A stretch of 64,000 nucleotides of DNA, taken from contig CALMIK010000009.1 of assembly GCA_937863995.1 (NCBI GenBank), forward strand, positions 31,577-95,576. Reading direction: 5' to 3'. The translations under genes were made by a program, and so were the position numbers. Shown here piece by piece: positions 35,945 through 55,734 of this stretch. Numbering within the stretch: position 1 is the stretch's first letter; each line of letters begins with the position of its first letter. The notes beneath the pieces were generated by a model. That model had not been told where the DNA came from and ran no database searches. It saw only the letters and a program-made list of their open reading frames with translations. The DNA comes from an uncultured Chelatococcus sp. Its GTDB lineage: Bacteria; Pseudomonadota; Alphaproteobacteria; Rhizobiales; Beijerinckiaceae.

Positions 35945-36012
35945 CCGTCGTGGATTTGTAACAAGACGTGTCTAGCCTGAGGCGACCGATCAAACGCAAG
36001 GATGTTCCTGCA

Positions 36013-37140
36013 ATGACAACGATCCACAGACGCGCCATTCTCAAGGGCGCGGCCGCTCTCGCGAGCGCTTCCGCCGTTGGCCCCTTCATCTCGCGCGGCG
36101 CGTTCGCGCAGGCTTCGTCCGGCACGGTCAACATCTTCGGGTGGGCGGGCTACGTCACCGACCCGCTCCTCGCCGCCTTCGAGAAGGCGACCGGCATCAA
36201 GGCCAAGTTCACGCCCTACGGCACCAACGACGAGCTGCTGAACCAGCTGCGCGCCAACCAGGGCAAGGGTTTCGACATCGTCTGGCCGACCGTGGACCGC
36301 GTGCCTAACTACGTCGAATTCGGCCTCATCCAGCCGATCGACGAATCGAAGGTCGAGGTGTCGCGCGTCCTGCCCGCCATCTGGAAGAACTCGGAAAAAT
36401 TCGGCGCCGTCGTGAACGGCAAGCGTTACCAGGTTCCCGCCGACTGGGGCACCGAGGCGCTGGCGTTCGACCGCAACAAGTCGCCGCTGGAATACGGCAA
36501 GGCCTCCTACGGCGACATCTGGAAGCCCGAGAGCGCCGGCAAGGCGACGGTGCGCGGCCACTCCAGCCTCGTCGGCCTCGGCCTGTGGCTGGAGAAGGAA
36601 GGCAAGCTGCCGCGCCCGCTGCTCGACGCGTTCAAGACCCCCGAAGCGCAGGTCGAGATCTTCGACGTGATCCTCGCCGAGGCCATCGCGCGCAAGGGCA
36701 ACATCGTGCAGTTCTGGTCGAACGAGAACGAAGCCCAGGGCGCGTTCCGCGTCAACGGCGCGACCATCGGCCAGACGTGGGATTCGACCGGCGCGGCACT
36801 TGCCAAGGAAGGCCTGCCCGTCGGCTTCATCGCCCCCACCGAGGGTGCGCTCGCGTGGCTCGAGGGCTTCGCCATTCCGGTCGGCGCCGAGAACGTCGAA
36901 CAGGCCTATGCCTTCATCAACTGGTTCCTGACGCCGGAAGCCGGCGCGCTGTACTCCAACGCCACCTCGATCAACTCGACCGCTGTCGGCGCCGCCGACC
37001 TGCTCGACGACAAGGCCAAGACGTTCTTCGCGAACGCCTATCCGGGCGACGCGCTCGAGCGCCTGTGGTGGTGGCCGGTGCAGGAAAACTGGTACGTGTC
37101 GAAGCGCAACGAGTATCAGGACCGCTTCCTCTCGGCCTGA
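36013..37140 (+). CDS. PotD/PotF-like ABC substrate-binding protein with Tat signal
   Basis: Tat signal HRRAILKG...AFA; motifs FGWAGY, FEKATGIK and EGALAW. Confidence 0.88.
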   Translation: MTTIHRRAILKGAAALASASAVGPFISRGAFAQASSGTVNIFGWAGYVTDPLLAAFEKATGIKAKFTPYGTNDELLNQLRANQGKGFDIVWPTVDRVPNYVEFGLIQPIDESKVEVSRVLPAIWKNSEKFGAVVNGKRYQVPADWGTEALAFDRNKSPLEYGKASYGDIWKPESAGKATVRGHSSLVGLGLWLEKEGKLPRPLLDAFKTPEAQVEIFDVILAEAIARKGNIVQFWSNENEAQGAFRVNGATIGQTWDSTGAALAKEGLPVGFIAPTEGALAWLEGFAIPVGAENVEQAYAFINWFLTPEAGALYSNATSINSTAVGAADLLDDKAKTFFANAYPGDALERLWWWPVQENWYVSKRNEYQDRFLSA

Positions 37141-37152
37141 AGTGACAAATCC

Positions 37153-37176
37153 GGAGGCGGCGCCCAAGCCGCCTCC
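37153..37176. other. Intergenic hairpin after the SBP gene
   Basis: GGAGGCGGC/GCCGCCTCC stem. Confidence 0.5.
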
Positions 37177-37259
37177 CTTACGGGGAGCGCCCCGGCGGAA
37201 GCGGTGCCCGCTTCTGCCGGCGTTGCTGCTTCCGCCGGCAATACCCTTGCGGAGTTTGC

Positions 37260-38324
37260 ATGCATTCGGTTGAGCTTGACAGGGTCGGCATGGCCTTCGG
37301 CGCCACGCGCGCCGTCGACAACGTGTCGCTGACGGTGGCCGGGGGAGAGTTCTTCTCCATTCTCGGCCCCTCCGGCTGCGGCAAGACGACCGTGCTGCGG
37401 ATGATCGCCGGTTTTCTCGAACCCACCTCCGGCACCATCGCCATCGCCGGACGCGCCATGAAGGGGCTGGGGCCGAACCAGCGCCCCACGGCGATGATCT
37501 TTCAGTCGCTGGCGCTGTTTCCGCTGATGCCGGTGTGGGAGAACATCGCATTCGGTCTGGAGGCGCGCGGTGTCGCGCGGGCGAAGCGGCGGGCGAGAGC
37601 CGAGGAACTGCTGGAGTTGATCGCGCTGAAAGGCTACGGCGACCGGCTGCCGGGCGAGCTTTCGGGCGGCCAGCGCCAGCGTGTCGCCATCGCGCGGGCG
37701 CTCGCCATCGAGCCGCAGGTGCTGCTGCTCGACGAGCCGCTTTCGGCGCTCGACCTCAAGCTGCGCCAGCACATGCGGGCGGAGCTTCGCGCCCTGCAGA
37801 AGCGCACCGGCATCACCTTCATCTACATCACCCACGACCAGTCCGAGGCGCTGGCGATGTCGGACCGCATCGCGGTCATGAACGGCGGAGCGGTGGAGCA
37901 GGTCGGCACGCCACACGACCTCTACGACAACCCGGCGACGCCGTTCATCGCCACTTTCGTGGGCGAGAACAACGCCATCGCGGGCCGGGTGAGCGCCATC
38001 GCGGACGGGATCGCGACGGTGGACACCGGCGCGGAAGCCCTGCGCGGCCGGGCGGGCCCGGGCCTCGCCGTGGGCTCGGCGGCGCGGCTCTACGTGCGCC
38101 CCGAGGCGCTGGCCGCGGATGGCGCGGCCGAGAACGGCGTGAGCGCGCGGATCGATCGCATCGATTTCGAAGGCGCCTTCGCCCTTGCCTACGGAACGCG
38201 GCCCAACGGCGCGCCGCTCATCGCCTCCATCGCCAGCACCGCGCTCGCGAGCGCCCCCGCGGTTGGGGTGGCGGCGGCGTTCTCCTTCCGCACCGGCCAC
38301 GCAACGGTGCTTCCCGATGCCTGA
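37260..38324 (+). CDS. PotA-like ABC ATP-binding protein
   Basis: Contains GPSGCGKT, LSGGQRQR, LLDEPLSALD and THDQSEA. Confidence 0.92.
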   Translation: MHSVELDRVGMAFGATRAVDNVSLTVAGGEFFSILGPSGCGKTTVLRMIAGFLEPTSGTIAIAGRAMKGLGPNQRPTAMIFQSLALFPLMPVWENIAFGLEARGVARAKRRARAEELLELIALKGYGDRLPGELSGGQRQRVAIARALAIEPQVLLLDEPLSALDLKLRQHMRAELRALQKRTGITFIYITHDQSEALAMSDRIAVMNGGAVEQVGTPHDLYDNPATPFIATFVGENNAIAGRVSAIADGIATVDTGAEALRGRAGPGLAVGSAARLYVRPEALAADGAAENGVSARIDRIDFEGAFALAYGTRPNGAPLIASIASTALASAPAVGVAAAFSFRTGHATVLPDA

Positions 38325-39198
38325 GGTCCTGCGGCGCTTCGGCCATGGTTCCGGCACGATCATCCTCGCACTGGTGTTCCTGTGGCTCGCGGGCATGGTG
38401 CTCGCCCCCAACCTGACGATGATCGACTACGCCCTGCGGCCCAACCTGCCGCCCGCGCGCATCGGCGGGCCGGACGACGTCTACTCGCTCGACAACATCC
38501 TGTATCTGTTCAACGAGCCGGTGCACCGCGCGATCTTCGTGAAAACTATCTGGGCGAGCGCGCTCGTCGCCTTCGCCACGTTCGCGGTGTGTTACCCGCT
38601 GGCTTTCTGGCTGGCGCAGCGCGCCACGCGCAACCAGACGGCGCTGGCGCTGCTGGCGCTGACGATTCCCTTCTGGATCAACGAGGTGTTGCGCACGCTG
38701 GCGTGGTACATCCTGCTCGCCTATCGCGGACCGTTGAACGAGGCGCTGCTCGGCCTCGGCCTCATCGACGAGCCGGTGCGCTGGCAAGGCAACGCCGGCG
38801 TGCTCGCCGGCATGGTTTATGCTTACATCCTCTTCATGCTGTTTCCGATCTACAACGCCATCGAGAGCCTCGACAAGGCGCAGGTCGAGGCCGCCCGCGA
38901 CCTCGGCGCGCCGACGTGGCGCATTCACTGGCGCGTGGTGATGCCCCACGCCAAGGCCGGCATCGCCACGGGCTGCGTCTTCACCTTCATGCTCGCGGCC
39001 GGTTCCTACGTGGCGCCGGCGCTGCTGGGCGCGCCGGGAAGCCGCTGGTTCACCGAGATCATCTACAACTGGTTCTTCGAGGGCGGCGACTGGAACAGGG
39101 GCGCGGCCTACGCGCTGGTCCTGCTGGTGCTGTGCCTCGTCGTCGTGCTGGCGGCCCTCAGGCTCGCCCGCGTCAGCCTGGCCGAGGTGACGAAATGA
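38317..39198 (+). CDS. PotB-like ABC permease
   Basis: Contains IPFWINE..R and EAARDLGA. Start set at MPEVLR. Confidence 0.88.
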   Translation: MPEVLRRFGHGSGTIILALVFLWLAGMVLAPNLTMIDYALRPNLPPARIGGPDDVYSLDNILYLFNEPVHRAIFVKTIWASALVAFATFAVCYPLAFWLAQRATRNQTALALLALTIPFWINEVLRTLAWYILLAYRGPLNEALLGLGLIDEPVRWQGNAGVLAGMVYAYILFMLFPIYNAIESLDKAQVEAARDLGAPTWRIHWRVVMPHAKAGIATGCVFTFMLAAGSYVAPALLGAPGSRWFTEIIYNWFFEGGDWNRGAAYALVLLVLCLVVVLAALRLARVSLAEVTK

Positions 39199-39992
39199 GC
39201 AGCGGAAGCTGGATCGCCAAGGCGCTGTTCCGCTTCTATTTGGCGGCGTTCTTCCTGTATCTTTTCCTGCCGCTCGCGTTGATGAGCGCCGCCACCTTCA
39301 ACACCAGCCGCTTTCCCACCGTCACCCCCTGGCAGGGCACCACGTTGCAGTGGTTCCAGGCCCTGTGGACCGATCAGGCCATGTGGAACGCGGTCTGGAC
39401 CTCGGCGGCCATCGCCCTGCTTGTGGTGGCGATAGCGCTGCCGGTGGGCACTGCGGCAGCACTCCTGCTCACCAGTCTGCACGGGCGCGCCCGCAACGTG
39501 CTCTACGCGGTCATGGTGTCGCCGCTGCTCACGCCCGGCGTGGTCGTCGGCATCGCGACACTGGTTCTGTGGCGGCAGCTTGGTGTCGGCGGCGGCCTGT
39601 TCCTGATCGTGATGGCGCAGGCGAGCTTCATCATCTGCTACGTGATGCTGATGGTTTCCGCCCGCCTCCAGCGCTTCGACCGCACCCAGGAAGACGCCGC
39701 GCTCGGCCTCGGCGCGTCGAAGTTCATGGTGTTCCGCCGCGTGCTGCTGCCGTTCCTGAAGCCCGCGCTGGTCGCATCGGGGTTCCTCGCGCTGCTGCAA
39801 TCGGTCGAGAACTACAACACCACGCTTTTCGTGCGCGGTTTCGAGACGCCGCTGACGGTTTTCATCGCCACGAAGGTGCGAACGGGCCTTACCCCCGCCG
39901 TGAACGCGCTCGCGCTCGTCATGATCGCAGCCGCCATCGTCGGCGCCACCGCTTACGAGCTTTACCGCCGCAGGCCGCCGCGCGCATCTTGA
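39195..39992 (+). CDS. PotC-like ABC permease
   Basis: Contains FYLAAFFLYLFLPL and EDAALGLGA; ATGA overlap with the upstream gene. Confidence 0.88.
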   Translation: MSSGSWIAKALFRFYLAAFFLYLFLPLALMSAATFNTSRFPTVTPWQGTTLQWFQALWTDQAMWNAVWTSAAIALLVVAIALPVGTAAALLLTSLHGRARNVLYAVMVSPLLTPGVVVGIATLVLWRQLGVGGGLFLIVMAQASFIICYVMLMVSARLQRFDRTQEDAALGLGASKFMVFRRVLLPFLKPALVASGFLALLQSVENYNTTLFVRGFETPLTVFIATKVRTGLTPAVNALALVMIAAAIVGATAYELYRRRPPRAS

Positions 39993-39999
39993 TGCCCGG

Positions 40000-40800
40000 T
40001 CAGTTCGCGGCCGCACGCCGCCAGCGTTCGGCGTTCATCTCCCATGGCCGGATCAGCAGATGCTCCACCGCCAGCATCACAACCACGAAGGCAAGCGCGT
40101 AAGCGATCACGTGGGCGATCTGAAACAGCTGGAAATACATGTGGATGCGAAAGCCGATGCCGCTCGATCGGCCGAGGAACTCGACCACGAGCACGATTTT
40201 CCAGATCACCGCGATACCGTTGCGCGCGGCGACGATGAAAAACGGCGCCAGCTGCGGCACGACGATGTGACGCAAGCGCCGCCCGGCCGGCAGCCGCGCC
40301 ACCTGGGCCAGTTCGTCGAGCGCGGGGTCGAGGGCGCGCGCGCCCTGACGCATCGTGACCAGCACCATCGCCGTCTTGTTGAGCGTCACGGCGGTGATCG
40401 CCGCCACCTCGTTGAGGCCGATCCACAGGTAGCATAACACGATCAGCACCAGCGCCGGCAGGTTCAGGAACACCGTCACCCACGGATCGGCCCAGCGGTC
40501 CAGCCACGGACAGCGCCCCAGCAGAACGCCGAGCACCGACCCCGCCGCCATCGCCAGACCGAACGCGACGGCCACGCGCACGAGCGTCGCCAGAAGGTCG
40601 CGCGGCAGCCGCCCCGCAGCGACCTCGTCCGCGAACACCCGCGCGACGGTCCAAGGCCCGGGCAGCACGGACGGGTCGGCCTTCGCCGCCGCCAGCGCCG
40701 CCCAGAGCGCGATCAGGGCGAGGATCGACAGGACGAAAATCCCCAGCGAGGTATCGTTGGCCGAGGTTGTTGCCCCGCCGCCGGCCGATTTTCCGATCAT
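40000..40800 (-). CDS. NitT/TauT-family ABC permease (partner of 50055-51621)
   Basis: Contains LPGPWTV, LNLPALV and WKIVLVVEFLGRSSGIG. Confidence 0.85.
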   Translation of the reverse strand: MIGKSAGGGATTSANDTSLGIFVLSILALIALWAALAAAKADPSVLPGPWTVARVFADEVAAGRLPRDLLATLVRVAVAFGLAMAAGSVLGVLLGRCPWLDRWADPWVTVFLNLPALVLIVLCYLWIGLNEVAAITAVTLNKTAMVLVTMRQGARALDPALDELAQVARLPAGRRLRHIVVPQLAPFFIVAARNGIAVIWKIVLVVEFLGRSSGIGFRIHMYFQLFQIAHVIAYALAFVVVMLAVEHLLIRPWEMNAERWRRAAAN

Positions 40801-40848
40801 CGTTTTTCTCCCCCTCCACTATAGCCTCGGCGCGGCGTGGCCTGCCTC

Positions 40849-40863
40849 GCGACCTTGGTCGTA
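40849..40863. promoter_or_regulatory. PQQ-island operator motif, copy 1
   Basis: GCGACCTTGGTCGTA in the divergent intergenic region. Confidence 0.75.
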
Positions 40864-40958
40864 TGTCGCTCGGCGCGCCGCCAGCCTATCTTTTCGTCGG
40901 GGAATGCCGGCGAAAAAGAACCGGCTCCGGAAAGTACGGCCCCTGGAGGAAACAGCCG

Positions 40959-43064
40959 ATGGGGAGGAGACTGGCGCTCCGGCTGGCCGCAGCGCTGTTC
41001 GCGTTGTGCGCCGCCGCCTTGTGCGCGGTGGCGGCTCCGCTGCCGCGCGAGGCGCTGGCGCCGATGATCGTGCCGCCCTACGCGCTGGGGGAGCCGGTCA
41101 ACGACAAAGGCGTGTGGACGCTGCTCAACTCCGGCGGCGCCGAGGCCGGCTACGTGTTCGAGACCGGCCCGCTCGCGCCCCTGCCGGGCTTTTCCGGCGC
41201 GCCGATCGACATGCTGGTCATGCTCGATCTCGGCGGGCGCTTTCTCGACGTGCGGCTCATCGCGCACAACGAACCCATCTTCGTGTCCGGCCTGGGGGAA
41301 GCGCCGTTCCGCGCCTTTCTGGAGCAGTATCGGGGCCGTTCGATCCGCGAGCCGCTCGTCGTCGGCACCCCTTACGGCACGGGCGGGAGCGGGTCCGAAC
41401 AGGTGCATCTCGACGGCGTGACCAAGGCCACGGCGTCGGTGCGGATCGCGCACGATTCGATCATGGCCGCCGCCTTCACCGTCGCCCGCGAGAAGATGGC
41501 CGGCATCGGCAACGCAGCGCCCGTGCGTCCCGCTCCTTCAGTAGACGAAGCGCTCGACTGGCAGGCGCTGGTGGACCAGGGCCTTGCCCGCAACCTGCGC
41601 GTGACCAACCGCGAAGTCGACGCGGCCTTCGCCGGCACGATCTGGGCCGACGACGATCCCGAGGCGGCGTCCGACCCCGACGTGCTCTACCTCGATCTGT
41701 GGGCCGTGGACCTCGGCCCGCCCTCCGTCGCCCGCGCGGTGCTGGACGACGCCAGCCTCAAGGATCTGCGGCGCTTCCTCGATGTCGCGGGCGACGACGA
41801 GCCGCTGCTGCTCATCGAGGCCGGCCGCCATGGCCTCGTGTCCGACGAATTCGTGCGCAACACCGCGCCCGACCGCTTGCTGGCGGAACAGGGCGGACTG
41901 CCGCTCCCGCTGCGCGACGCCGATATGTCGGTCTCGACGCGCCCCGGCGTTCCCGAAGGCAAGGCGATGGTCCTGCGCATCGACAGGCGGCTTGGCTTCG
42001 ATCCCACGCACGACTGGACGCTGTTCGCCCTCGCCACCCGCGCCCATGGCATGCTGCAGCCCGAAAACGGCTCGAAGCGCTTTCCGCTCGTGCTGCGCGC
42101 CGACCCGCGCTTCTATACGCGCGTCGAGGTTGCCGAGGCGCTCCCGCCCTGGCGGGAGGCCATGCTGCACCGCAAGTACGATCTCGCCGCGCTCGCCCTC
42201 TTCCTGCTGCCGCTGCTCGCGGCGCTCGGTCCCGGCATGCGCCCTCTGGCGGGAAGCAAACATTTCACCCCTGCCCGGCTGGCGATCCTGGCTGTCATGA
42301 TCGGCCTTGTCGGCTGGTGGGGACAGGGTCAGCTCTCCATCGTCACTGTTCTTGCGACGCTGCGCGCGGCGGCGGGCAACGGCTCGCTCACCGTCCTGCT
42401 CTACGATCCGTTCTCGCTGGTGGTGTGGGCTGCGGCCCTCACCGGCTTCGTGCTGTGGGGCCGGGGCCTGTTCTGCGGCTGGCTGTGCCCCTTCGGCGCG
42501 ATGCAGGAATTCGCCCACCACGCCGGGCGTCTGCTGCGGCTGCCGGAATACAACCCCTCGCCGCGTTGGGACGCGCGGCTGAAAGCGGGCAAATACGTCG
42601 CGCTCGCGGGGCTGGTCGCCGTCGCCTTTCTGCTGCCCGACGAAGCGGAGCGGGTCGCCGAGATCGAGCCGTTCAAGACCGCCGTCACCACGGGCTTTCA
42701 GCGCGAATGGTATTATGTCGCTTACGCGGCGGGGTGGCTGGTGCTGGGCATGGTCACCTTCAAGGGGTTCTGCCGCTACGTCTGCCCGCTCGGCGCCCTG
42801 ATGGCGATAGGCGGCCTGCTGCGGCTGCGCAACTGGATACCGCGCCGGGCCGAATGCGGCTCGCCCTGCCAGCTATGCAAGGTGCGCTGCCGCTACGGCG
42901 CGATCGAGAAAACCGGAAAGATCGCCTATTCCGAATGTTTTCAATGCCTTGACTGCGTCACGATCCACGACGACACGGCGCAATGCGTTCCGCTGGTGCT
43001 GGCCGCGAAAAGGCGGCAAACGGGCGAGCGAGCAAGACGCGCGCCGCGGGAGGCCACGATATGA
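40959..43064 (+). CDS. NosR/NirI-like membrane protein with FMN-binding and 4Fe-4S domains
   Basis: GGAGG RBS; DGVTKATAS; CGWLCPFG; FCRYVCPLG; CGSPCQLCKVRC; CFQCLDC. Confidence 0.85.
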   Translation: MGRRLALRLAAALFALCAAALCAVAAPLPREALAPMIVPPYALGEPVNDKGVWTLLNSGGAEAGYVFETGPLAPLPGFSGAPIDMLVMLDLGGRFLDVRLIAHNEPIFVSGLGEAPFRAFLEQYRGRSIREPLVVGTPYGTGGSGSEQVHLDGVTKATASVRIAHDSIMAAAFTVAREKMAGIGNAAPVRPAPSVDEALDWQALVDQGLARNLRVTNREVDAAFAGTIWADDDPEAASDPDVLYLDLWAVDLGPPSVARAVLDDASLKDLRRFLDVAGDDEPLLLIEAGRHGLVSDEFVRNTAPDRLLAEQGGLPLPLRDADMSVSTRPGVPEGKAMVLRIDRRLGFDPTHDWTLFALATRAHGMLQPENGSKRFPLVLRADPRFYTRVEVAEALPPWREAMLHRKYDLAALALFLLPLLAALGPGMRPLAGSKHFTPARLAILAVMIGLVGWWGQGQLSIVTVLATLRAAAGNGSLTVLLYDPFSLVVWAAALTGFVLWGRGLFCGWLCPFGAMQEFAHHAGRLLRLPEYNPSPRWDARLKAGKYVALAGLVAVAFLLPDEAERVAEIEPFKTAVTTGFQREWYYVAYAAGWLVLGMVTFKGFCRYVCPLGALMAIGGLLRLRNWIPRRAECGSPCQLCKVRCRYGAIEKTGKIAYSECFQCLDCVTIHDDTAQCVPLVLAAKRRQTGERARRAPREATI

Positions 43065-43933
43065 ACCGCCGCCGTTTCATGACCATCTGCGCCGCCGTCG
43101 CGGCCTCGCCGGCGCTGGCGCAGACCCACAGCTGGCAGGCGCAGGCACTCGGCGGCACCGTCAGCATAGACCTGCGCGGCCCCCGCCCCCTCGCAGCAGA
43201 AACCGGGCGGGCGATCGCCGACGCCATCGAGGCGGTGGAGGCGGCTGCAAGCCTCTTCCGGTCGGATTCCGCCCTGTCGCGGCTCAACCGCGCCGGCCGC
43301 CTCGACCACCCGCCGCCCATGCTGCGCGATCTGCTGGCGCTGGCAAGCCGGATGCACGCGGCAACGGGCGGCGTGTTCGATGCCAGCGTCCAGCCGCTGT
43401 GGCAGGCGCTGGCGGAAGGAGCGGACCCCGCCGCGGCCCGCGCCCGCATCGGCTGGGAGCATGTCCGCGTCGGGACATCCGTCGTTCTGGGCAACGGACA
43501 GGCGCTGACGCTGAACGGCATCGCGCAGGGCTATGCCGCCGACAAGATCCGCGCGATGCTGCAAGGGGCGGGATACGAACAGGTGCTCGTGGACATGGGC
43601 GAGTACGCGGCGCTCTCCGGCCCGTTCCGCATCGGCGTCGAGGACCCTGAGCTTGGCCTGATCGCTATCCATGCGTTGCGCGGCGACGCCATAGCCACCT
43701 CCAGCCCCGGCGCGATGCGGCTTGGCGCGGGCGGCCACATTCTGGGCCCGGCAGGTCAGCAGCCTGTGTGGTCCACGGTGTCGGTGCAAGCCGCCAGCGC
43801 CGGCGTGGCCGATGGCCTCTCCACCGCGTTTTGCCTGATGGGCACAGCGGCGATCCGCACGGCGATGCGTATGCTGCCGGAAGTGTCGGCCGTCACGGCG
43901 GTGGATCTGAAAGGAGACGTGACGACGTTTTGA
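43061..43933 (+). CDS. apbE: FAD:protein FMN transferase with Tat signal
   Basis: Tat signal MNRRRFM; SLFRSDSALSRLN, LNGIAQGYAAD, DMGE, ATSS and ADGLSTA. Confidence 0.88.
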   Translation: MNRRRFMTICAAVAASPALAQTHSWQAQALGGTVSIDLRGPRPLAAETGRAIADAIEAVEAAASLFRSDSALSRLNRAGRLDHPPPMLRDLLALASRMHAATGGVFDASVQPLWQALAEGADPAAARARIGWEHVRVGTSVVLGNGQALTLNGIAQGYAADKIRAMLQGAGYEQVLVDMGEYAALSGPFRIGVEDPELGLIAIHALRGDAIATSSPGAMRLGAGGHILGPAGQQPVWSTVSVQAASAGVADGLSTAFCLMGTAAIRTAMRMLPEVSAVTAVDLKGDVTTF

Positions 43934-43965
43934 CCCGGGTCATCGGATTTCATCGCCGAAGAAGT

Positions 43966-44880
43966 TCAGCGGCTGGGCGCCTCGAAATCCAGCCCGTGTT
44001 CCTTGAATATCGCGGCGATGCGCCCGTCCGCCAGCGCAGCTTCGATCGCCGCATCGACGGCATACGCGAGGTCGCGGTGCTGGAAGTTGACGCCGACGCC
44101 GATCGTCCACCGCCCCCGGGCAAAGCCCGTGAACGGCGGCTCGTGCACCTTGATACCGGCTTCCGGGTGCAGGGCGGCGCCCGCCTGCAACTCGCCGCGC
44201 GGTCCCATCGCGGCTTTCGTCTCGCCTCCGGCCAGTGCGCCCACGGCGAGCAGCGTGCTGCGAAAGCGATGAATGTTGTCCACCGGGCCGATGAGCGATG
44301 TCAGGTAGAAATCCGAGATGGAATCGTTCTCCACCGCCACCGTGTCGAACCGGAAATAAGGCGCGGTCGGCCCCTTCTCGGGAAAATCCTTGGCCTTGTA
44401 GGCAATCGCGATGGCCTCGGTGGCGTACTGGCCGGTGAACACCACCTGCTCTATGCGGCAGGTCAGCAGGCTGTCGTAGGGCACGTGCAGCATCACGTCG
44501 CTGACGCGCCCGCCGATCACCGCGCCTTTCCAGACGTAATTGAACAGGTCGGCGTCGAGGTTGTCGCCCGCCTGCACCAGACGGAAGCGCGGCTCCACGC
44601 CGAGCTCGGCCGCGATGAGACGGCCGATGTCGATGTCGATCCCGCGCGCCTTGCCGCGCTCTTCCCACGACCACGGACGGAAATCCGCGTAGACGGCGAA
44701 TTCGATCCATCCGTCCTGCACGATACGGTCGAACGTGCGTCCCACATCCTGCGCGAACGTGTTCTGGGGTTTGGGCTGCGGCGGGAAATCCTCGCAGCGC
44801 GCCAGCGCGCCGTGAGGAAAGACAGCGCCGAGCCCCAGCGCCAGAACGGCGGCCGTGAGTGCGCGGGTGAGCCGAGACAT
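43966..44880 (-). CDS. Periplasmic binding protein of PQQ-ADH systems (MxaJ/XoxJ-like role)
   Basis: Family-3 SBP features (FAVYADFRPWS, GIDIDIGR); directly follows the cytochrome c550 gene. Confidence 0.75.
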   Translation of the reverse strand: MSRLTRALTAAVLALGLGAVFPHGALARCEDFPPQPKPQNTFAQDVGRTFDRIVQDGWIEFAVYADFRPWSWEERGKARGIDIDIGRLIAAELGVEPRFRLVQAGDNLDADLFNYVWKGAVIGGRVSDVMLHVPYDSLLTCRIEQVVFTGQYATEAIAIAYKAKDFPEKGPTAPYFRFDTVAVENDSISDFYLTSLIGPVDNIHRFRSTLLAVGALAGGETKAAMGPRGELQAGAALHPEAGIKVHEPPFTGFARGRWTIGVGVNFQHRDLAYAVDAAIEAALADGRIAAIFKEHGLDFEAPSR

Positions 44881-44883
44881 GCC

Positions 44884-45570
44884 TTACTCCGTTGCCGAAA
44901 GGCCGACCGTCAGGATTTCGCCCGCCCTCTTCCAGCTTTCAGGGGCGTCGCCCAGCGTGCGTGCGGCCTCGTAGGCCACGCTGTCCGCCACCGGCGCGCC
45001 GGAAGCCGTCTTCACCTGGCTTGCAATGCCCTCGAGCTCCTTCTTCAGCGCCGCCGGGTCCGCCACCTTGCCGGAAGCCAGCTCGTTGCGGATCGCATGC
45101 AGGCGGGCGGCGTGGTCGTCGAGAGCGCCGTCCTCGGGGCGGCTTTCGATGTAGGTTCGGATGGCCCATGCCGCCTTCTGGCCGAGAATGTCGCCGAAGG
45201 CCGGCATCTTCGTCACTCCGTCCTGCGTATAGCCGTGGCGGAAGCGGTCCACGTACCATTCGTCGCCATGCTCCTCCGCCTCGACGAAGCGCAGGTCGGG
45301 AGCGAGGCCGCCGGAGACAACGCCCAGTCCGTGGCAGCGGGCGCAGTTCTGGGTGTAGCCCGACGCGCCGATCTCGACCGCCTTGAGCCAGACATCGTGC
45401 CCGGCCTTGGCCTCGCGGTACGGGTTCTCGGTCAGCCATTCCTCGCCCACTTCGGGCAGGCCGTCTGTGTTCATCGGCTGCGGGGCCACGTCACCGTGAG
45501 CAACGGCCAGACTGACCGTCGCCACGAGCGCCAGCGCGGCAAGGCCGCCGCGAATGCGGGTCCTGGACAT
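44884..45570 (-). CDS. pedF: Cytochrome c550 (PedF/ExaB-type electron acceptor)
   Basis: Contains HGDVAPQPMNT, the heme motif CARCH, APDLR and the axial KMPAF. Confidence 0.85.
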   Translation of the reverse strand: MSRTRIRGGLAALALVATVSLAVAHGDVAPQPMNTDGLPEVGEEWLTENPYREAKAGHDVWLKAVEIGASGYTQNCARCHGLGVVSGGLAPDLRFVEAEEHGDEWYVDRFRHGYTQDGVTKMPAFGDILGQKAAWAIRTYIESRPEDGALDDHAARLHAIRNELASGKVADPAALKKELEGIASQVKTASGAPVADSVAYEAARTLGDAPESWKRAGEILTVGLSATE

Positions 45571-50054: not shown

Positions 50055-50678
50055 CTACTCGGCGTCCTCAAGTCGCGCCGGACGGCCGGCGAGCCGCAGT
50101 TGCCGGGATGCCAGCCGCCGCGCCTCGGCGGCGACATGGGTGACGAGGATCGTGGCCACCGGCGTCGTCTGCCGCAGCCGCTCGAACAGCGCCATCATGG
50201 CTTCCGCCAGCTCCGGGTCGAGACTGACGAACGGTTCGTCCATCAACAGCAACTCCGGGCGCGACGCGAAGGCACGGGCCAGCGCCAGCCGGCGCTGCTG
50301 GCCGAGCGATAGCTGGGCGGGAAAACGCGCTTCGCAGCCCGCAAGCCCCACGTCGCCCAGCCAACGCCGCGCCTCGGGCGCGGATATGCCAGCGATGATC
50401 GACAGATTCTGCGCCGCGTCGCGCCAAGGCAGCAGCGCCGGTTCCTGAAACACCATGGCGATGCGCGCCGGGGCTTGGAGACGCCCGTGAAAGCGCCGTT
50501 CCAGCCCGGCGATAATCCGCAGCAGTGTGGTCTTGCCGACGCCCGATGGGCCCGTCAGCGCCAAGGTCTCGCCGGGCGCAAGCGTCAGGGAGAGAGGGCC
50601 GAGCACATCACCCGGCCCGCCGCGCTCCAGGTCGAGGCGCAGGCAGGGCTCAGATGCCGGAATCGACGAAAACGCCAT
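50055..50678 (-). CDS. NitT/TauT-family ABC ATP-binding protein
   Basis: Contains GPSGVGKTT, VFQEPALLPW, LSLGQQRR and LMDEPF. The start is uncertain. Confidence 0.85.
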   Translation of the reverse strand: MAFSSIPASEPCLRLDLERGGPGDVLGPLSLTLAPGETLALTGPSGVGKTTLLRIIAGLERRFHGRLQAPARIAMVFQEPALLPWRDAAQNLSIIAGISAPEARRWLGDVGLAGCEARFPAQLSLGQQRRLALARAFASRPELLLMDEPFVSLDPELAEAMMALFERLRQTTPVATILVTHVAAEARRLASRQLRLAGRPARLEDAE

Positions 50679-51621
50679 CGGGCAGTTCCTTGAGGTCACC
50701 TGCGAGATCCGCGCCGCCGAGTTCGACCATCAGCCCCAGCAGCCGCTGCGCCGCCGCCCTGTCGACGGGCCCGGGCTTGGGTATCCCGTCCAGAAAGCCC
50801 GCCTTCAGGGCCGCGAACTCCGCGTCGGACGCCGCGTTCATCAGCGGCCGGATGCGGTCCCACGCCGCCGGATCGGAGGCGAGCTTGTCCTTGGCGGCGC
50901 GAGAGGCCGCAGCAAGCCCGGCGGCGAGGCCGGGATGCGCGCGCAATACCTCGCCGCGCACCACGTAGCCGAGAAGCGGCGTGTCGGGATCGAGGCCAAG
51001 CGCCGTCGCCGCCGCGGAAACGGTGATGAGCGGGCGCATGCCCGCCGCCTGCATCCTGGCGCCGAAATGCCAAAAATTGACGGCGGCGGCGAATTCGCCG
51101 CCGAGCGCCGCCTTGAAGATGAGCGGCGGCGCGCCGAAGACCTGCTCCGTCTGGCCGGCCAGATCGAAGCCCTCTGCCTGCCTGGCGTAGGCGCGCAGGA
51201 TCAGCCAGCTCTTGTCCACCGGGCCGCCGGCGACCCCGATCCGTTGTCCGCGCAGATCGGCAAGCGCTTTCGCGCCGCTCCCGCCCGGCACCAACAGCGC
51301 GCCGACGGCGCGGGAATATGGGATGAACACGACATCGCGGCCGGCGGCGCGCTCACGCGCGACCCAGAGCCAGTCGGAGACGATCACGTCCACCTCCCCG
51401 GCCATCAGCGCGATCTGCGCGGCCGGCGTTCCCGCCATGTCCGTGACGGCGAGCGAAAAGCCGTTGGCCTTGTCGAAGCCGTTGTGGCGGATGGTGTCGA
51501 CTTCCCAGTTGACGGTGCCCGTAAGCTGAAGCGCCGCCCGCAGGCGCGGATGCTCCGCCAGCGCCGCCGAACAGGATAACGCGACCGCGACCGCCGCCCC
51601 GACAAGCGCCCGGATGTTCAT
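50650..51621 (-). CDS. NMT1/TauA-like substrate-binding protein, PqqT-like (candidate PQQ binder)
   Basis: Signal peptide; [22 protein letters not shown] and PYSRAVG; divergent from the PQQ-ADH gene. Confidence 0.75.
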
Positions 51622-51672
51622 GCCAATTCCTCCTTTTTTCCTGTATCCTATTGGCAATACGGCAGCGGGATA

Positions 51673-51728
51673 TACGACCAAGGTCCCGTATCGGATGCCG
51701 GCCCGCGGGCAATGTTACGACCAAGGTG
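51673..51728. promoter_or_regulatory. PQQ-island operator motif, copies 4 and 5
   Basis: TACGACCAAGGTC (51673-51685) and TACGACCAAGGTG (51716-51728), 43 bp apart. Confidence 0.78.
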
Positions 51729-51827
51729 CAATATACCGCCCCGTTGCACGCACCAATAATGACGGAAATGGCTGGACGACCTGCGGCAAAGCTCCGTGAT
51801 CCGCGCCATGATCCGAGGGAGGATATA

Positions 51828-53594
51828 ATGAAACGGTTCTTGCTGGCCGCTGTCACGGCCATGGCCTGCGTCGGAATGGCCCAGGCACAGGTGACTGAAG
51901 AAGATCTGGCGAACGACGCCGAAACCGTCAACAACGTGCTCACGAACGGCCTCGGCCGGGGGTTGCAGCGCTACTCGCCCCTGCAGACGCTCAACAAGGC
52001 CAACGTGAAGGGCCTCGTCCCGGCATGGGCCTTCAGCCTCGGCGGCGAAAAGCAGCGCGGGCAGGAAAGCCAGGCGATCGTCTACGACGGCGTGATGTAT
52101 ATCACCGGTTCCTACAGCCGCATCTTCGCCATCGACGTCGCCACCGGGCGCAAGCTGTGGCAGTACGACGCTCGCCTGCCCGAGGGCATCCTGCCCTGCT
52201 GCGACGTCGTCAACCGCGGCGCGGCGATCTTCGGCGACAACGTCTATTTCGGCACGCTCGACGCGCGTCTCATCGCGCTCAACCGCAAGACCGGCCGCGT
52301 GGTCTGGAACAAGAAGCTCGCCGAGTACAAGGAAGGCTATTCGTACACCGCCGCGCCGCTCATCGTGAAGGGCCTCGTCATCACCGGCAATTCCGGCGGC
52401 GAGTTCGGCGTGGTCGGCGAGGTGCAGGCTCGCGATGCGGCCACGGGCGAGCTGGTGTGGTCGCGCCCCACCATCGAAGGCCACAAGGGCACCTTCAAGG
52501 GTAAGGAATCGAGCACCACCGGAACCCTCAACGCCACCTGGCCGGGCGATGCGTGGAAGACCGGCGGCGGCGCGACGTGGCTCGGCGGCTCCTATGACGC
52601 CGACACCGACACGCTCGTCTTCGGCGCCGGCAACCCCTCGCCGTGGAACAGCCATCTGCGCGGCGCCGGCAAGCCCATGGAAGGCAACAAGGGCGACAAC
52701 CTCTACGCCGCCAGCCGTCTCGGCATCGACCCCGCGACCGGCGAGATCAAGTGGCACTTCCAGACCACCCCGCGCGAGGGCTGGGATTTCGACGGCGTGA
52801 ACGAGGTCGTGCCCTTCGTCGCGGCGGACGGGACGAAGCGCTACGCCACGGCCGACCGCAACGGCTTTTTCTACATCCTGAACCGCGAGGACGGAAAATA
52901 CGTCAATGCCTGGCCGTTCGTGAAGAACATCAACTGGGCCAAGGGCATCGACAAGGACGGCCGCCCGATCTTCAACGAAGAGAACCGCCCCGGCGATCCC
53001 GCCGCCGCGGCAGACGGCGCCAAGGGCCAGCAGATCTTCTCCGTGCCGTCCTTCCTCGGCGGCAAGAACTGGATGCCCATGGCCTATAGCCAGAAGACCG
53101 GGCTGTTCTACGTGCCTTCCAACGAATGGGGCATGGACATCTGGAACGAGCCGATCAACTTCAAGAAGGGCGCTGCCTTCCTCGGCGCGGGCTTCACCAT
53201 CAAGCCCCTGTTCGAGGACTACATCGGCAGCCTGAAGGCGATCGACCCGAACACCGGCGACATCAAGTGGGAATACAAGAACGGCGCGCCGCTGTGGGCG
53301 GGCGTGATGACCACCGCCGGCGGACTGGTCTTCACCGGCAATCCGGAAGGCGAGTTCCTCGCGCTCGATGACGAAACCGGCGAAGTGCTGTGGAAATTCC
53401 AGACCGGGTCGGGCATCGTGGGCCAGCCGGTGACGTGGGAACAGGACGGCGAGCAGTACGTCTCCGTCATCTCCGGCTGGGGCGGCGCGGTGCCGCTGTG
53501 GGGCGGCGAAGTGGCGAAGAAGGTCAACTACCTCAACCAGGGAGGCATGGTCTGGACCTTCCGCCTGCCGAAGGAACTGGCCAAGGCCAACTGA
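51828..53594 (+). CDS. pedH: PQQ-dependent alcohol dehydrogenase, lanthanide type (PedH/ExaF-like)
   Basis: Signal peptide ending AQA, vicinal [16 protein letters not shown], the active-site WDFDGVNE (D-x-D) motif, and GGKNW. Confidence 0.88.
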
Positions 53595-54558: not shown

Positions 54559-55734
54559 ATGAAACAGGCCGGACGGCCTACGGATGCTCACGCATCGATT
54601 ATCCGCAGGGCCTGCGTGCCGGCGGCAAACCTGCGCGCCGCCGAGGACCTTGCCGGGATGCTCGGGCCGGGGCCTTTCGCGCTCGTCATCGTGTTCACCT
54701 CTCCCGACGCCGATCTGGCGCGGCTGTCGGCGCAGGCGGCGCAAGTCTTCGCCGGGGCGAGGCTCATCGGCTGCACCACGGCGGGAGAGATTTCCGACGC
54801 CGGCTACGACGACAACACGATCGTCGCGGTGGCGCTGCCCGCATCGCATTTCGGCGCGGAAACCCTCACCATTCCCGACCTGTCGCGGCTTGAGCCGCGC
54901 GACCTCACGACGGCCGTGGCGCGGGCGCGCGAGGCGCTGGCACGCGATTATCCCACTCTCCCGCACGCGTTCGCCATGCTGCTCGTCGATGGGCTTTCGG
55001 TGAAGGAGGACGAGCTCGCATCGGCGCTCTCGGCAGGCCTCGGGTCAATGCCGCTGCTGGGCGGCTCCGCCGGCGACGGCACACGCTTCCAGCAGACGTT
55101 CGTCATCGACGGCGACCGGCTGCTGCGGAACGCGGCGGTGCTGGCTTTCGTGCGCAGCGCGTGCCCGATGCGGATATTCAACCTCGACCACCTGATACCG
55201 ACCAAGAAGCGCATGGTGGTGACGCTGGCGGAGCCGCGCCGGCGCATCGTGCGCCGGATCAACGACGAACCGGCGGCGCAGGAATATGCGCGCCTGCTGG
55301 GCAAGGACCCGCTACAACTCACGCCCTTCAACTTCGCCGCGCATCCGCTGGCCGTGCGCATGGGCGAGCGCCACCACGTGCGCGCGGTGCAGCAGGTGAC
55401 GCCGGATGGCGATCTGGTGTTCTTCTCCGCCATCGACGAGGGCGTCGTGCTGACGCTCGCCGAGCCGCAAGACATCGCCCAGCATCTCGAACACGAGCTC
55501 GACCGGCTGAGTGAACCGGCGCAACCCGTTGCGGTCGTCGCCTTCGATTGCATCCTGCGCCGGCTCGAGGCGCAGGAAAGGCAGGTCACGGGCCGCGTGT
55601 CGGACATCCTGCGCAGGCATGGCGTGACGGGTTTCTCGACCTACGGCGAGCAGTTCGGCGCGCTGCACGTCAACCACACGATGACCGGGATCGCGTTCTA
55701 CGCACCCGGCACCGCGCTGCCCGAGGACGGCTGA
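54559..55734 (+). CDS. FIST N/C-domain sensory protein
   Basis: Contains GCTTAGEI, LVDGLS, GGSAGD, AFDCILR and GFSTYGEQ. Confidence 0.9.
   Translation: MKQAGRPTDAHASIIRRACVPAANLRAAEDLAGMLGPGPFALVIVFTSPDADLARLSAQAAQVFAGARLIGCTTAGEISDAGYDDNTIVAVALPASHFGAETLTIPDLSRLEPRDLTTAVARAREALARDYPTLPHAFAMLLVDGLSVKEDELASALSAGLGSMPLLGGSAGDGTRFQQTFVIDGDRLLRNAAVLAFVRSACPMRIFNLDHLIPTKKRMVVTLAEPRRRIVRRINDEPAAQEYARLLGKDPLQLTPFNFAAHPLAVRMGERHHVRAVQQVTPDGDLVFFSAIDEGVVLTLAEPQDIAQHLEHELDRLSEPAQPVAVVAFDCILRRLEAQERQVTGRVSDILRRHGVTGFSTYGEQFGALHVNHTMTGIAFYAPGTALPEDG

Follow-up and report, generated by a model that had tools for sequence, protein, structure and literature searches.

Conserved synteny supports the assignment of a NosR-like/ApbE gene pair to a PQQ/lanthanide alcohol-oxidation island in an uncultured Chelatococcus sp., where it occupies positions 40959-43933 of the 64,000-nt stretch of DNA that we analyzed (hereafter, the window). 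On balance, we lean towards a reading in which the pair is a dedicated NosR/NirI plus NosX/ApbE paralogue that gives the PQQ system a flavinylated electron conduit across the membrane. The original prediction, made from the DNA letters alone, implied that finding NosR and ApbE in an alcohol dehydrogenase (ADH) cluster was new, but the association with PQQ-ADH was already published in silico in 2021, when Méheust et al. (eLife 10:e66878, PMC8238504) described NapH-like/ApbE flavinylation clusters with exaA in 172 genomes. As a redox component of the PQQ system, the pair is a well-supported lead, not a discovery.

The first gene (P0001; 40959..43064, forward strand) begins with an ATG at 40959, preceded by GGAGG 9 nt upstream, ends with a TGA at 43064, and encodes a NosR/NirI-family membrane FMN/Fe-S protein of 701 aa. 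In a profile search, the NCBIfam NosR model NF046105 covered positions 30-680 with 432 bits, Pfam Fer4_5 matched with 57 bits, and residues 492-674 were matched by NapH models. The NF046105 score lies below the equivalog cut-off of 1000 bits, a value that does not discriminate in this class, where the top alphaproteobacterial NosR-like genes score only 856 bits; since genuine-looking alphaproteobacterial NosR proteins miss it too, we dropped it as a membership criterion. A newer Pfam release names these proteins PF27538 'NosR'. The protein displays the full NosR/NirI architecture, all encoded on the forward strand: an N-terminal signal/anchor helix (residues 9-27, 40983..41039; hydropathy peak 2.29, model helix 3-20), a periplasmic FMN_bind-like domain (residues 28-192, 41040..41534), two CX3CP motifs (C506-GWL-C510-P, 42474..42491, and C605-RYV-C609-P, 42771..42788), and a cytoplasmic, ferredoxin-like C-terminal region with eight Cys (42855..42986; C633-x3-C637-x2-C640-x3-C644 and C660-x2-C663-x2-C666-x9-C676). 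Both CX3CP motifs and all eight C-terminal Cys are invariant in 70 orthologues, and through these Cys the tail would bind two [4Fe-4S] clusters in the manner of NosR/NapH. The domain order (i.e., signal/anchor, periplasmic FMN_bind-type domain, second periplasmic domain, polytopic CX3CP part, and 2x[4Fe-4S] tail) is that of NosR from Pseudomonas stutzeri and Paracoccus denitrificans, which is likewise partnered by a flavin transferase (ApbE or NosX) that matures it.

The N-domain was assigned from a sub-threshold Pfam match, an AF2 model, and Foldseek. FMN_bind (PF04205) scored 17.7 bits (E=0.006) on the isolated domain and 18.6 bits when the genome was scanned, in both cases short of the gathering threshold of 22; canonical NosR scores 29.8. 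An AF2 model of the isolated domain (pTM 0.74, with low confidence in the motif loop) returned RnfG as its top five Foldseek matches (E 1.4e-4 to 3.8e-4, probability 1.0, TM(query) up to 0.51) and NqrC as the sixth (probability 0.85). We take RnfG and NqrC to be the two covalently flavinylated FMN_bind subunits of known structure. With a full-length AF2 model (pLDDT 75.8), the RnfG match was marginal (E=1e-3), and the isolated-domain model was needed for a clear Foldseek answer; a PDB sequence search with the protein produced no match at E<=0.01, leaving no solved NosR-family structure for comparison. As modelled, the N-domain adopts an RnfG/NqrC-type fold, with the acceptor Thr at the start of a long helix. 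Unlike the protein studied here, RnfG and NqrC are subunits of the ion-pumping Rnf and Na+-NQR complexes; sequence identity to them is about 21%, and the pair has no linked Rnf or Nqr genes.

The second gene (P0002; 43061..43933, forward strand) encodes an ApbE-family FAD:protein FMN transferase of 290 aa. Its ATG at 43061 overlaps the nosR-like TGA as ATGA, its own TGA stop lies at 43933, and most of the 78 orthologous apbE genes begin at, or a few bases from, the nosR-like stop; apbE is translationally coupled to the nosR-like gene. The product scores 142 bits against PF02424 (cut-off 25.6) and carries a twin-arginine signal (MNRRRFM..., encoded at 43061-43123) whose RRxF motif recurs in all 78 orthologues scanned. 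Its top PDB match is P. stutzeri ApbE (5mgy), the enzyme that flavinylates NosR, to which the conserved active-site stretches GYA, H-x-x-x-P, and ADGLSTA could be aligned. By tblastn, an ApbE homologue lies directly 3' of the nosR-like gene in 77 of 80 loci. A conserved 152-aa ORF that seemed to lie at this 3' position was discarded as an antisense shadow of apbE. The coordinates first proposed for the pair were exact, and the two genes do form a NosR-like/ApbE unit. In the whole assembly (3.53 Mb, 97% complete), we found neither a second ApbE gene nor an FMN_bind-like domain other than the one in the NosR-like protein.

NosR is required for N2O respiration, and its electron recipient and mechanism are still argued. 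The gene described here is not encoded with nosZ. The absence of nos genes, first noted for the window, holds for the whole assembly, in which we found no nosZ (the best TIGR04244 match reached 20 bits), no nosDFYL, and no second NosR-family gene; nor was nosZ present among the recognized genes of related loci. In addition, ~85 relatives from species-level genomes form one clade on a long stem (SH-aLRT 100), apart from the other alphaproteobacterial NosR/NirI-family proteins and not grouped with bona fide NosR; the NosR-like protein is only about 30% identical to alphaproteobacterial NosR. Besides this separate clade, the differences from NosR lie in a T-K-A-T in place of S-G-A-T, in the invariant R162 and H165, and in the PQQ-ADH neighbors. 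There is precedent for such a reassignment: in the nir cluster of Paracoccus denitrificans, NirI/NirX arose by duplication of the NosR/NosX module and came to serve a different periplasmic respiratory enzyme. Its partner is cd1 nitrite reductase, in contrast to the present pair, to which none is linked.

The site at which FMN would be attached reads D152-G-V-T-K156-A-T158 (41412..41432, forward strand; T158 codon at 41430-41432), just as originally read, and it is a real, conserved variant. The alphaproteobacterial NosR motif is D-x-[IV]-S-G-A-T, and T158 aligns with the FMN-acceptor Thr of its SGAT. Compared with the consensus D-x-x-[S/T]-G-A-[S/T], D, T, A, and T agree, whereas the Gly at -2 is replaced by Lys. 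Among 85 clade members, K156 and T158 are invariant (85/85 each), D152 is retained in 84, and the A and S residues flanking the acceptor are also invariant, under clear purifying selection. The Lys is kept in relatives as distant as 35% identity, and two distant Lys-bearing relatives are orphans. Taken together, DGVTKAT reads as a clade signature rather than an oddity. The Gly at -2 is not universal in the NosR-like superfamily (other lineages have S, R, M, or T), and about 50% flavinylation was retained when G was changed to A in a fumarate reductase target (review PMC12052999), so the variant is no argument against flavinylation. T158 would be expected to carry covalent FMN. R162 and H165, which are specific to the clade, are invariant beside the site together with K156, and the three residues change the net charge near the FMN by about +1.75.

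The pair does lie among genes of a PQQ system. A lone ABC permease gene (BPD_transp_1; 40000..40800, reverse strand) diverges from the nosR-like gene, and a gene for a PedG/XoxJ-like SBP_3 periplasmic protein (43966..44880, reverse strand) converges with apbE, followed by one for cytochrome c-550 PedF (44884..45570, reverse strand; TIGR04494, 188 bits versus a cut-off of 122). Farther along lie an ABC ATPase gene of a PqqT-type transporter (Pfam ABC_tran; 50055..50699, reverse strand), a gene for a PqqT-like PQQ-binding SBP (Pfam NMT1; 50650..51681, reverse strand), and a PQQ-dependent ADH gene of the methanol/ethanol family (51651..53594, forward strand; TIGR03075, 761 bits over residues 78-612), the true start of which is probably downstream of 51651. 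The window also encodes members of the LutA and LutB families (TIGR03863 and TIGR03866), a histidine kinase and a response regulator of the LuxR type, and pqqBCDE. The ADH gene is 7.7 kb downstream of the pair, about 11 genes away but within the same island, and is closer in many related loci. The SBP matched Methylorubrum extorquens PqqT (PDB 9B1U) with E=4.6e-67 and 230 bits over residues 53-341, and the divergent permease, judging from its gene associations, belongs to the same PqqT-type (PQQ-binding) ABC importer as the genes at 50055-51681. In three loci (L020, L021, and L071), the permease gene adjoins those for the ATPase and the NMT1-type SBP, and its association with the pair is also seen in L134; its homologue lies directly upstream and divergent in 44 of 80 loci. 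PqqT is unrelated to NosR; its relevance, through the homologue that serves the transporter of the neighboring permease, is confined to PQQ as a possible substrate.

The membership of the pair in a PQQ-ADH island, as originally proposed, is borne out by synteny across ~85 species-level genomes, and the association extends to hundreds of alphaproteobacterial species. Full flanks (>=9 kb on both sides) are available for 51 loci, of which 45 have an island gene near the pair (pedF/pedG, lutAB, pqq, or PQQ-ADH) and 41 have PedF together with LutA/B; a PedG/XoxJ-like SBP_3 gene occurs within 10 kb in 53 of 80 loci. The synteny is retained at identities from 84% to as low as 39%, through Hyphomicrobiales, Rhodobacterales, Pelagibius, and a gammaproteobacterial MAG, while gene orders differ: pedF-pedG-nosRlike-apbE are all co-directional in one locus (L115, 54% identity), as are ADH-cyt c-SBP3-nosRlike in another (L138, 39% identity). 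Where the pair is unlinked, eight of ten such genomes encode PQQ-ADH elsewhere. In a 301-genome sample of the class, the clade was present in five genomes, all of them among the 40 with the LutB family TIGR03866 (hypergeometric p about 3e-5 by our own arithmetic on this sample). Since only about 5 of these 40 Lut-positive alphaproteobacterial genomes have the pair, it is an accessory component and not a core PQQ-ADH requirement. We also considered whether the true partner is encoded in a 5-kb insert between apbE and pedG in roseobacters, which encodes a CoxG/CoxSML-type molybdenum hydroxylase (probably an aldehyde oxidoreductase), and rejected this idea, as the insert is found in only 26 of 80 loci and is absent from the window. 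The island is often located on plasmids or chromids, which shuffle genes.

The pair also shares a candidate operator with the island, in agreement with what had been noted for its promoter. The divergent permease gene is separated from the nosR-like ATG by 158 bp, which contain the palindrome GACCTTGGTC (40851..40860; extended form CGACCTTGGTCGTAT; consensus GACCWWGGTC). The window holds five exact copies of GACCTTGGTC, all in intergenic regions of the island, and the motif is common to the pedF/lutA, ADH, and pseudoazurin/pqq intergenic regions. When one mismatch was allowed, we counted 14 matches in the window versus 4.95 +/- 2.2 in shuffled sequences, none of 100 shuffles reaching 14. At the same stringency, 56 of 80 loci have the motif in the 200 nt that precede the nosR-like gene (0.06 expected per locus), including loci that lack the divergent permease. 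Scans of positions 40700-44100 for sigma-70 promoters and intrinsic terminators gave no matches, which is uninformative for an alphaproteobacterium at 66% G+C.

The locus shares with the published exaA clusters a PF12801 membrane Fe-S protein, ApbE, and a K00114-type PQQ-ADH in one cluster. Méheust et al. required exaA within 5 genes, whereas the ADH gene of the window lies beyond that distance, and they drew their model for an 'R. thiooxidans' cluster (PMC8238504). The Ciceribacter thiooxidans locus has the gene order of the window and a 69% identical protein, and judging from the locus rather than from their table, it is probably the example of their Figure 5A. Their account consists of one paragraph and the model, without PQQ, lanthanides, the Lys variant, a PqqT-type transporter, or the adjacent c550. 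Our literature search found no experimental work on a NosR-like/ApbE pair with PQQ or lanthanide systems.

We envisage that the operon would be switched on together with pedF/pedG, lut, ADH, and pqq through the common GACCWWGGTC operator, probably bound by the LuxR-type response regulator of the island. ApbE, exported by Tat, would attach FMN from FAD to T158 in the periplasm through a phosphoester bond. The NosR-like protein would thereby become a transmembrane electron wire, with the two [4Fe-4S] clusters and the NapH-type CX3CP module on the inside and the covalent FMN on the outside, its inner side presumably exchanging electrons with quinol or a cytoplasmic donor. We infer both the direction of flow and the partner: outward flow is taken by analogy with NosR, NirI, NapH, and PceC, and the likely purpose would be to hold some periplasmic part of the PQQ system in the redox state it needs to work, the candidates being PedF c550, enzyme-bound PQQ, and free PQQ. 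The functions suggested originally, namely ADH activation, PQQ redox maintenance, and an alternative electron exit, are each compatible with what we observed.

Electrons could instead enter through this protein. The published proposal for exaA-associated NapH-like clusters is that the flavinylated protein takes electrons from ADH or c550 to quinone, replacing the Pseudomonas cytochrome c (PMC8238504), and we give it a minor though real chance. The catalytic genes of the island are all oxidative, K156, R162, and H165 could equally well raise the flavin potential towards that of PQQ or c550, favoring inward flow, and in a separate NosR-like lineage (L117, P0141) the protein is fused to a cytochrome c domain and adjoins a PQQ-dehydrogenase-like gene, suggesting that such modules talk to c-type haem. 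However, the idea of a substitute for a cytochrome agrees badly with the near-constant adjacency of c550 PedF, which is seen in the window, at the C. thiooxidans locus, and in most full-flank loci. Moreover, the characterized relatives NosR, NapH, and PceC are all thought to move electrons outward (PMC12052999), and a path from PQQH2 or c550 through ferredoxin-type [4Fe-4S] clusters to ubiquinone would be thermodynamically unattractive.

It is also conceivable, if unlikely, that what the Lys-bearing subfamily acts on is PQQ itself, not a partner protein, with K156, R162, and H165 docking the tricarboxylate. In PqqT, PQQ is docked by K142, and the permease of the PqqT-type importer is the most persistent neighbor of the pair. 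If this were so, the covalent FMN would reduce or re-oxidize free periplasmic PQQ with membrane or cytoplasmic electrons and, together with the importer, would govern the redox state of PQQ, how stable it is, or how it is taken up or loaded into lanthanide-dependent dehydrogenases.

The first accounts of NosR and NirI had them as requirements for the transcription of nosZ and nirS, respectively, and annotators still give the family 'transcriptional regulator' names; to our knowledge, how either affects transcription has never been explained. By extension, the NosR-like protein might sense redox conditions in the membrane or periplasm, and the ADH island might depend on it for expression; in some loci (L016, L037, L075, L074, and L136) the pair directly adjoins its response regulator, FIST, and kinase genes (e.g., nosRlike-apbE-FIST-PAS7 kinase in L136). 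We find this role quite improbable, since a Pfam scan revealed no DNA-binding or signaling output domain in the protein and the complete conservation of its redox cofactor sites suggests that it primarily transfers electrons.

A degenerate N-domain, in which the Lys marks a lost site and ApbE acts elsewhere, seems very improbable to us. The Pfam score is sub-threshold, the canonical Gly is replaced, and G-to-A alone already halves flavinylation in the model substrate (PMC12052999); against this stand the conservation of the acceptor Thr and its flanking residues in 85 sequences, the near-constant 3' apbE with no other FMN_bind target in this genome, and the S, R, M, or T at -2 elsewhere in the superfamily. 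That the pair is a chance or hitch-hiking neighbor is scarcely credible, for although six of the 51 full-flank loci have no other island gene within 10 kb (five of them keeping the permease) and the island often rides on gene-shuffling replicons, the synteny survives great divergence and varied gene orders, the operator motif is shared, and the clade is nested within the LutB profile.

For the PQQ/lanthanide field, the pair is a conserved, co-regulated component of the island of which we found no mention in the PQQ or lanthanide literature, and the membrane-spanning redox wire predicted for it hints that cytochrome c550 is not the only redox input or output that periplasmic alcohol oxidation requires. 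With the invariant Lys, the range of substrates known for ApbE would widen, a point of interest to developers of flavin-tagging tools. Finally, a sister module tied to a different, aerobic periplasmic system may offer a second, simpler handle on the function of the NosR family, in carriers that are easily grown (Phaeobacter, Shinella, Ensifer, and Ruegeria) and often bear the pair on plasmids.

The nosR-like gene extends on the plus strand from an ATG at 40959, with a GGAGG located 9 nt 5' of it, to a TGA at 43064 and encodes a 701-aa protein, P0001. Its stop codon overlaps the start of apbE as ATGA, and apbE (ATG 43061 to TGA 43933, plus strand) encodes the 290-aa partner, P0002. P0001 matches positions 30-680 of the 680-position NCBIfam NosR model (432 bits), its residues 492-674 are matched by NapH models, and Pfam Fer4_5 is matched as well. 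Hydropathy together with cysteine mapping revealed an N-terminal anchor (residues 9-27) followed by ~380 periplasmic residues, then a polytopic membrane section that contains two CX3CP motifs (C506GWLCP and C605RYVCP), and a C-terminal tail carrying C-x3-C-x2-C-x3-C and C-x2-C-x2-C-x9-C. The twelve cysteines of the CX3CP motifs and the tail are invariant among 70 orthologues. P0002 belongs to the ApbE family (PF02424, 142 bits) and bears a twin-arginine signal, MNRRRFM; its closest solved relative is P. stutzeri ApbE, the flavinylator of NosR (5mgy, E=7e-14), with which its GYA, H-x-x-x-P, and ADGLSTA stretches align. A conserved 152-aa minus-strand ORF without a Pfam match (window 43534-43779; L064:12564-13022 in a related locus) was discarded as an antisense shadow of apbE. 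The absence of nos genes, noted in the original prediction for the window, extends to the whole genome: the 3.53-Mb assembly (97% complete) contains no nosZ and a single NosR-family gene, that of P0001.

The Pfam FMN_bind model scores 17.7 bits (E=0.006) on the N-terminal domain of P0001, compared with 29.8 bits for canonical alphaproteobacterial NosR. Since the cut-off is 22, a Pfam-based screen would overlook this domain. Residues 28-192 were modelled with AF2 from 73 orthologues (pTM 0.74), and a Foldseek comparison of the model with the PDB gave RnfG for each of the top five matches (E 1.4e-4 to 3.8e-4, probability 1.0, TM up to 0.51), with NqrC next. RnfG and NqrC are the two covalently flavinylated FMN_bind subunits of known structure. 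In the model, T158 lies at the N-terminus of a long helix (residues 158-180), and it aligns with the acceptor threonine of the NosR S-G-A-T motif. The predicted fold thus supports an N-terminal FMN domain that falls below the Pfam threshold.

The variant motif DGVTKAT, reported in the original prediction, is encoded exactly at 41412-41432. We compared it across the window protein and its relatives (n = 85), high-scoring alphaproteobacterial NosR proteins (n = 30), and other family members (n = 14), and found that the clade shares the consensus L-D-G-V-T-K-[A/G]-T-A-S-V-R-I-A-H-E-S, with K156, T158, and R162 each present in all 85 sequences and H165 in 84. The canonical group reads D-x-[IV]-S-G-A-T-V-T, without basic residues at the K156, R162, and H165 positions, and the net charge of the 19-residue segment is +0.5 in the clade versus -1.2 in the rest. 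Across 1.84 billion representative proteins searched, Lys at -2 is kept in relatives down to 35% identity, and other NosR-like lineages have M, R, S, T, Q, or H there; Gly is therefore no universal requirement in the superfamily. For the ApbE consensus D-x-x-[S/T]-G-A-[S/T], G-to-A or A-to-V substitution leaves ~50% flavinylation, and loss of the Thr abolishes it (PMC12052999). We infer from sequence that T158 is the putative FMN attachment site of P0001. This is argued for by the apbE homologue lying directly 3' of the nosR-like gene in 77 of 80 related loci, by a Tat signal in all 78 scanned ApbE orthologues, and by the tight coupling of the two genes, with apbE starting at, or a few bases from, the nosR-like stop in most of those 78. 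It is further argued for by the genome itself, in which P0002 is the sole ApbE and the N-terminal domain of P0001 is the sole FMN_bind-like match.

As the original prediction proposed, the genes surrounding the pair form a PQQ alcohol-oxidation island: convergent with apbE are genes for an SBP_3 protein (PedG/XoxJ-like) and cytochrome c550 PedF, and the island further comprises LutA/LutB/LutC with an ABC-2 transporter, a second ABC ATPase with its binding protein, a PQQ-ADH, a LuxR-type regulator, a FIST protein, a PAS kinase, and pqqBCDE. With each GTDB species represented by a single genome, a scan identified at least 441 relatives, of which the best 80 (60-74% identical) were analyzed with 10-kb flanks; they derive from Rhizobiaceae, Paracoccaceae/Roseobacteraceae, Pelagibius, and one gammaproteobacterial MAG (Abyssibacter), whose gene order is the same. 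Searching these 80 loci, many of them truncated, with the window proteins (tblastn) revealed PedG and PedF in 53, LutA/LutB in 52, pqqB in 16, pqqC and pqqE in 14 each, and PQQ-ADH in 17. Of the 51 loci flanked on each side by 9 kb or more, 45 contain an island gene, and PedF and LutA/B occur in 41. The link survives both rearrangement and sequence divergence: pedF-pedG-nosRlike-apbE are all co-directional in a 54%-identical relative (L115), as are ADH-cyt c-SBP3-nosRlike in one of 39% identity (L138), and a third (L136, 51%) has the order nosRlike-apbE-FIST-PAS kinase. Among 301 sampled alphaproteobacterial genomes, the LutB family occurs in 40, which include all 5 clade carriers (hypergeometric p ~3e-5), and none of these 5 encodes a second NosR-family gene. 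Where the pair is unlinked to the island, a PQQ-ADH is encoded elsewhere in 8 of 10 such genomes. Maximum-likelihood analysis of 77 family members placed the 33 sequences from PQQ contexts together, separated from the rest by a long branch (SH-aLRT 100).

Orthologues of 60-76% identity were also found on 67 plasmid or chromid records in PLSDB (e.g., NZ_CP021048.1 192343-195185), with carriers in Pseudosulfitobacter, Phaeobacter, Sulfitobacter, Ruegeria, Shinella, Ensifer/Sinorhizobium, and Thioclava. The island seems to move with the pair as one unit, because the rest of it accompanies the pair in both replicons examined; plasmid pP128_a of Phaeobacter gallaeciensis, for example, carries pqqABCDE, the permease, the pair, a molybdenum hydroxylase, SBP3, pedF, and lut genes. 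In 26 of the 80 loci, mostly from roseobacters and spanning L009-L079, CoxG and a 2Fe-2S/MoCo/FAD molybdenum hydroxylase separate apbE from pedG and are transcribed in the direction of pedF-pedG (e.g., L038:12975-17200, minus strand; also L132:15229-18891); this insert is missing from the window. The enzyme is probably an aldehyde oxidoreductase, and its 161-aa small subunit, seemingly too short to bear a Tat signal, suggests a cytoplasmic location. In 22 of the 80 loci (including L001:10172 and L002:18909), the lut ABC-2 permease gene is followed by a conserved ~200-aa gene that lacks a Pfam match and for which tblastn found no homologue in the window at E<=1e-5. The window FIST gene (54649-55707, plus strand) lies between those for the LuxR-type regulator and the PAS_7 kinase and matches the FIST protein of locus L051 (tblastn, 51% identity, E=2e-108); in L016, L037, L075, and L136, such FIST-kinase pairs adjoin the nosR-like pair.

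The island also shares a palindrome, GACCWWGGTC. All five exact copies in the window lie in intergenic regions of the island, and with up to one mismatch the window holds 14, versus 4.95 +/- 2.2 in shuffled sequences (0 of 100 shuffles reach 14). The promoter copy that had been predicted is present as GACCTTGGTC at 40851-40860, in the gap that separates the divergent permease gene from the nosR-like ATG, 108 nt before the latter. With up to one mismatch, the palindrome occurs within 200 nt 5' of the nosR-like gene in 56 of the 80 loci (0.06 expected), some of which lack the divergent permease; in relatives, whose starts were estimated from alignments with the window protein, it lies ~30-70 nt before the start. 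Its 3' extension G-N-A-T, often GTATG or GCATAG, is conserved upstream of the nosR-like genes of L001-L080, giving the consensus GACCWWGGTCG-N-AT (window 40846-40866). This conservation points to a candidate operator common to island and pair, and together with the synteny it supports the predicted membership of the pair in the PQQ-ADH island.

The most persistent neighbour of the pair is the lone permease gene (40000-40800, minus strand), which is divergent from the nosR-like gene in 44 of the 80 loci and kept in 5 of 6 loci detached from the island. In L020, L021, and L071, it lies between homologues of the window ATPase (50055-50699) and binding protein (50650-51681), and a 46%-identical relative (L134) has a contiguous ATPase/permease/binding-protein trio convergent with nosRlike-apbE. 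In the window, this PqqT-type ABC system is split: nosRlike-apbE, pedGF, and the lut operon separate its permease from the ATPase and binding protein (50055-51681, minus strand), 9 kb away. The binding protein is clearly homologous to PqqT (PDB 9B1U, E=4.6e-67), the periplasmic PQQ-binding protein of M. extorquens (Kd ~60 nM), in which Lys142 stands in for the metal ion on PQQ (PMC11331073). Ending 8 nt from the convergent permease gene is the gene for a 536-aa permease (38382-39992, plus strand) with one BPD_transp_1 match (residues 353-531), which belongs to an unrelated SBP-ATPase-permease operon (35968-39992).

We propose that P0001 would carry covalent FMN on T158 and pass electrons between its cytoplasmic-side Fe-S/CX3CP module and the periplasmic FMN, with a partner within the PQQ system. 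The direction of flow is the least secure part of this model. The analogy with NosR, NirI, NapH, and PceC and the ferredoxin-type clusters favour outward flow, which, if true, would fit reductive maintenance; inward flow is possible, because the island is oxidative in nature and the surroundings of the flavin are positively charged. Action of the pair on the cofactor PQQ is kept open as a secondary and rather improbable reading because of the PqqT-type neighbour and the clade-specific basic residues by the flavin. A separate NosR-like lineage (~30% identical; L117:5489-8983, plus strand, L120, and P0141) is a 1160-aa fusion of a cytochrome c (CIACH), a NapH-like module with two CX3CP motifs, and a NosR-like module, and a PQQ-dehydrogenase-like gene (37% identical to the window ADH) lies directly 3' of it. 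NosR-like modules are thus recruited to PQQ enzymes repeatedly, and they probably trade electrons with c-type haem.

The association of NosR-like/ApbE genes with PQQ-ADH is not new: a survey of flavinylation-associated clusters listed NapH-like (PF12801) clusters with 'ethanol oxidase' (exaA) in 172 genomes (Méheust et al. 2021, eLife 10:e66878). The published cytochrome-replacement argument is weak, since the PedF c550 gene is found with the pair in ~80% of full-flank loci. The Ciceribacter thiooxidans locus, encoding a 69%-identical protein, has exactly the gene order of the window, with a c550 gene by the pair. Our literature search found no experimental link of NosR-like genes to PQQ, lanthanides, xoxF, exaA, or pedH, and a newer Pfam release names these proteins PF27538 'NosR'. 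What the current study adds is the T-K-A-T signature, accompanied by R162 and H165, across the clade, an FMN domain that scores below threshold yet has structural support, the argument from a sole ApbE with a sole target, the conserved operator-like palindrome, the persistent tie to a PqqT-type transporter, and the c550 co-occurrence that undercuts the published model. Collectively, the pair is unexceptional within a subfamily that is widespread, already catalogued, and uncharacterised; its association with PQQ-ADH holds little surprise in itself, and it provides a good experimental lead.
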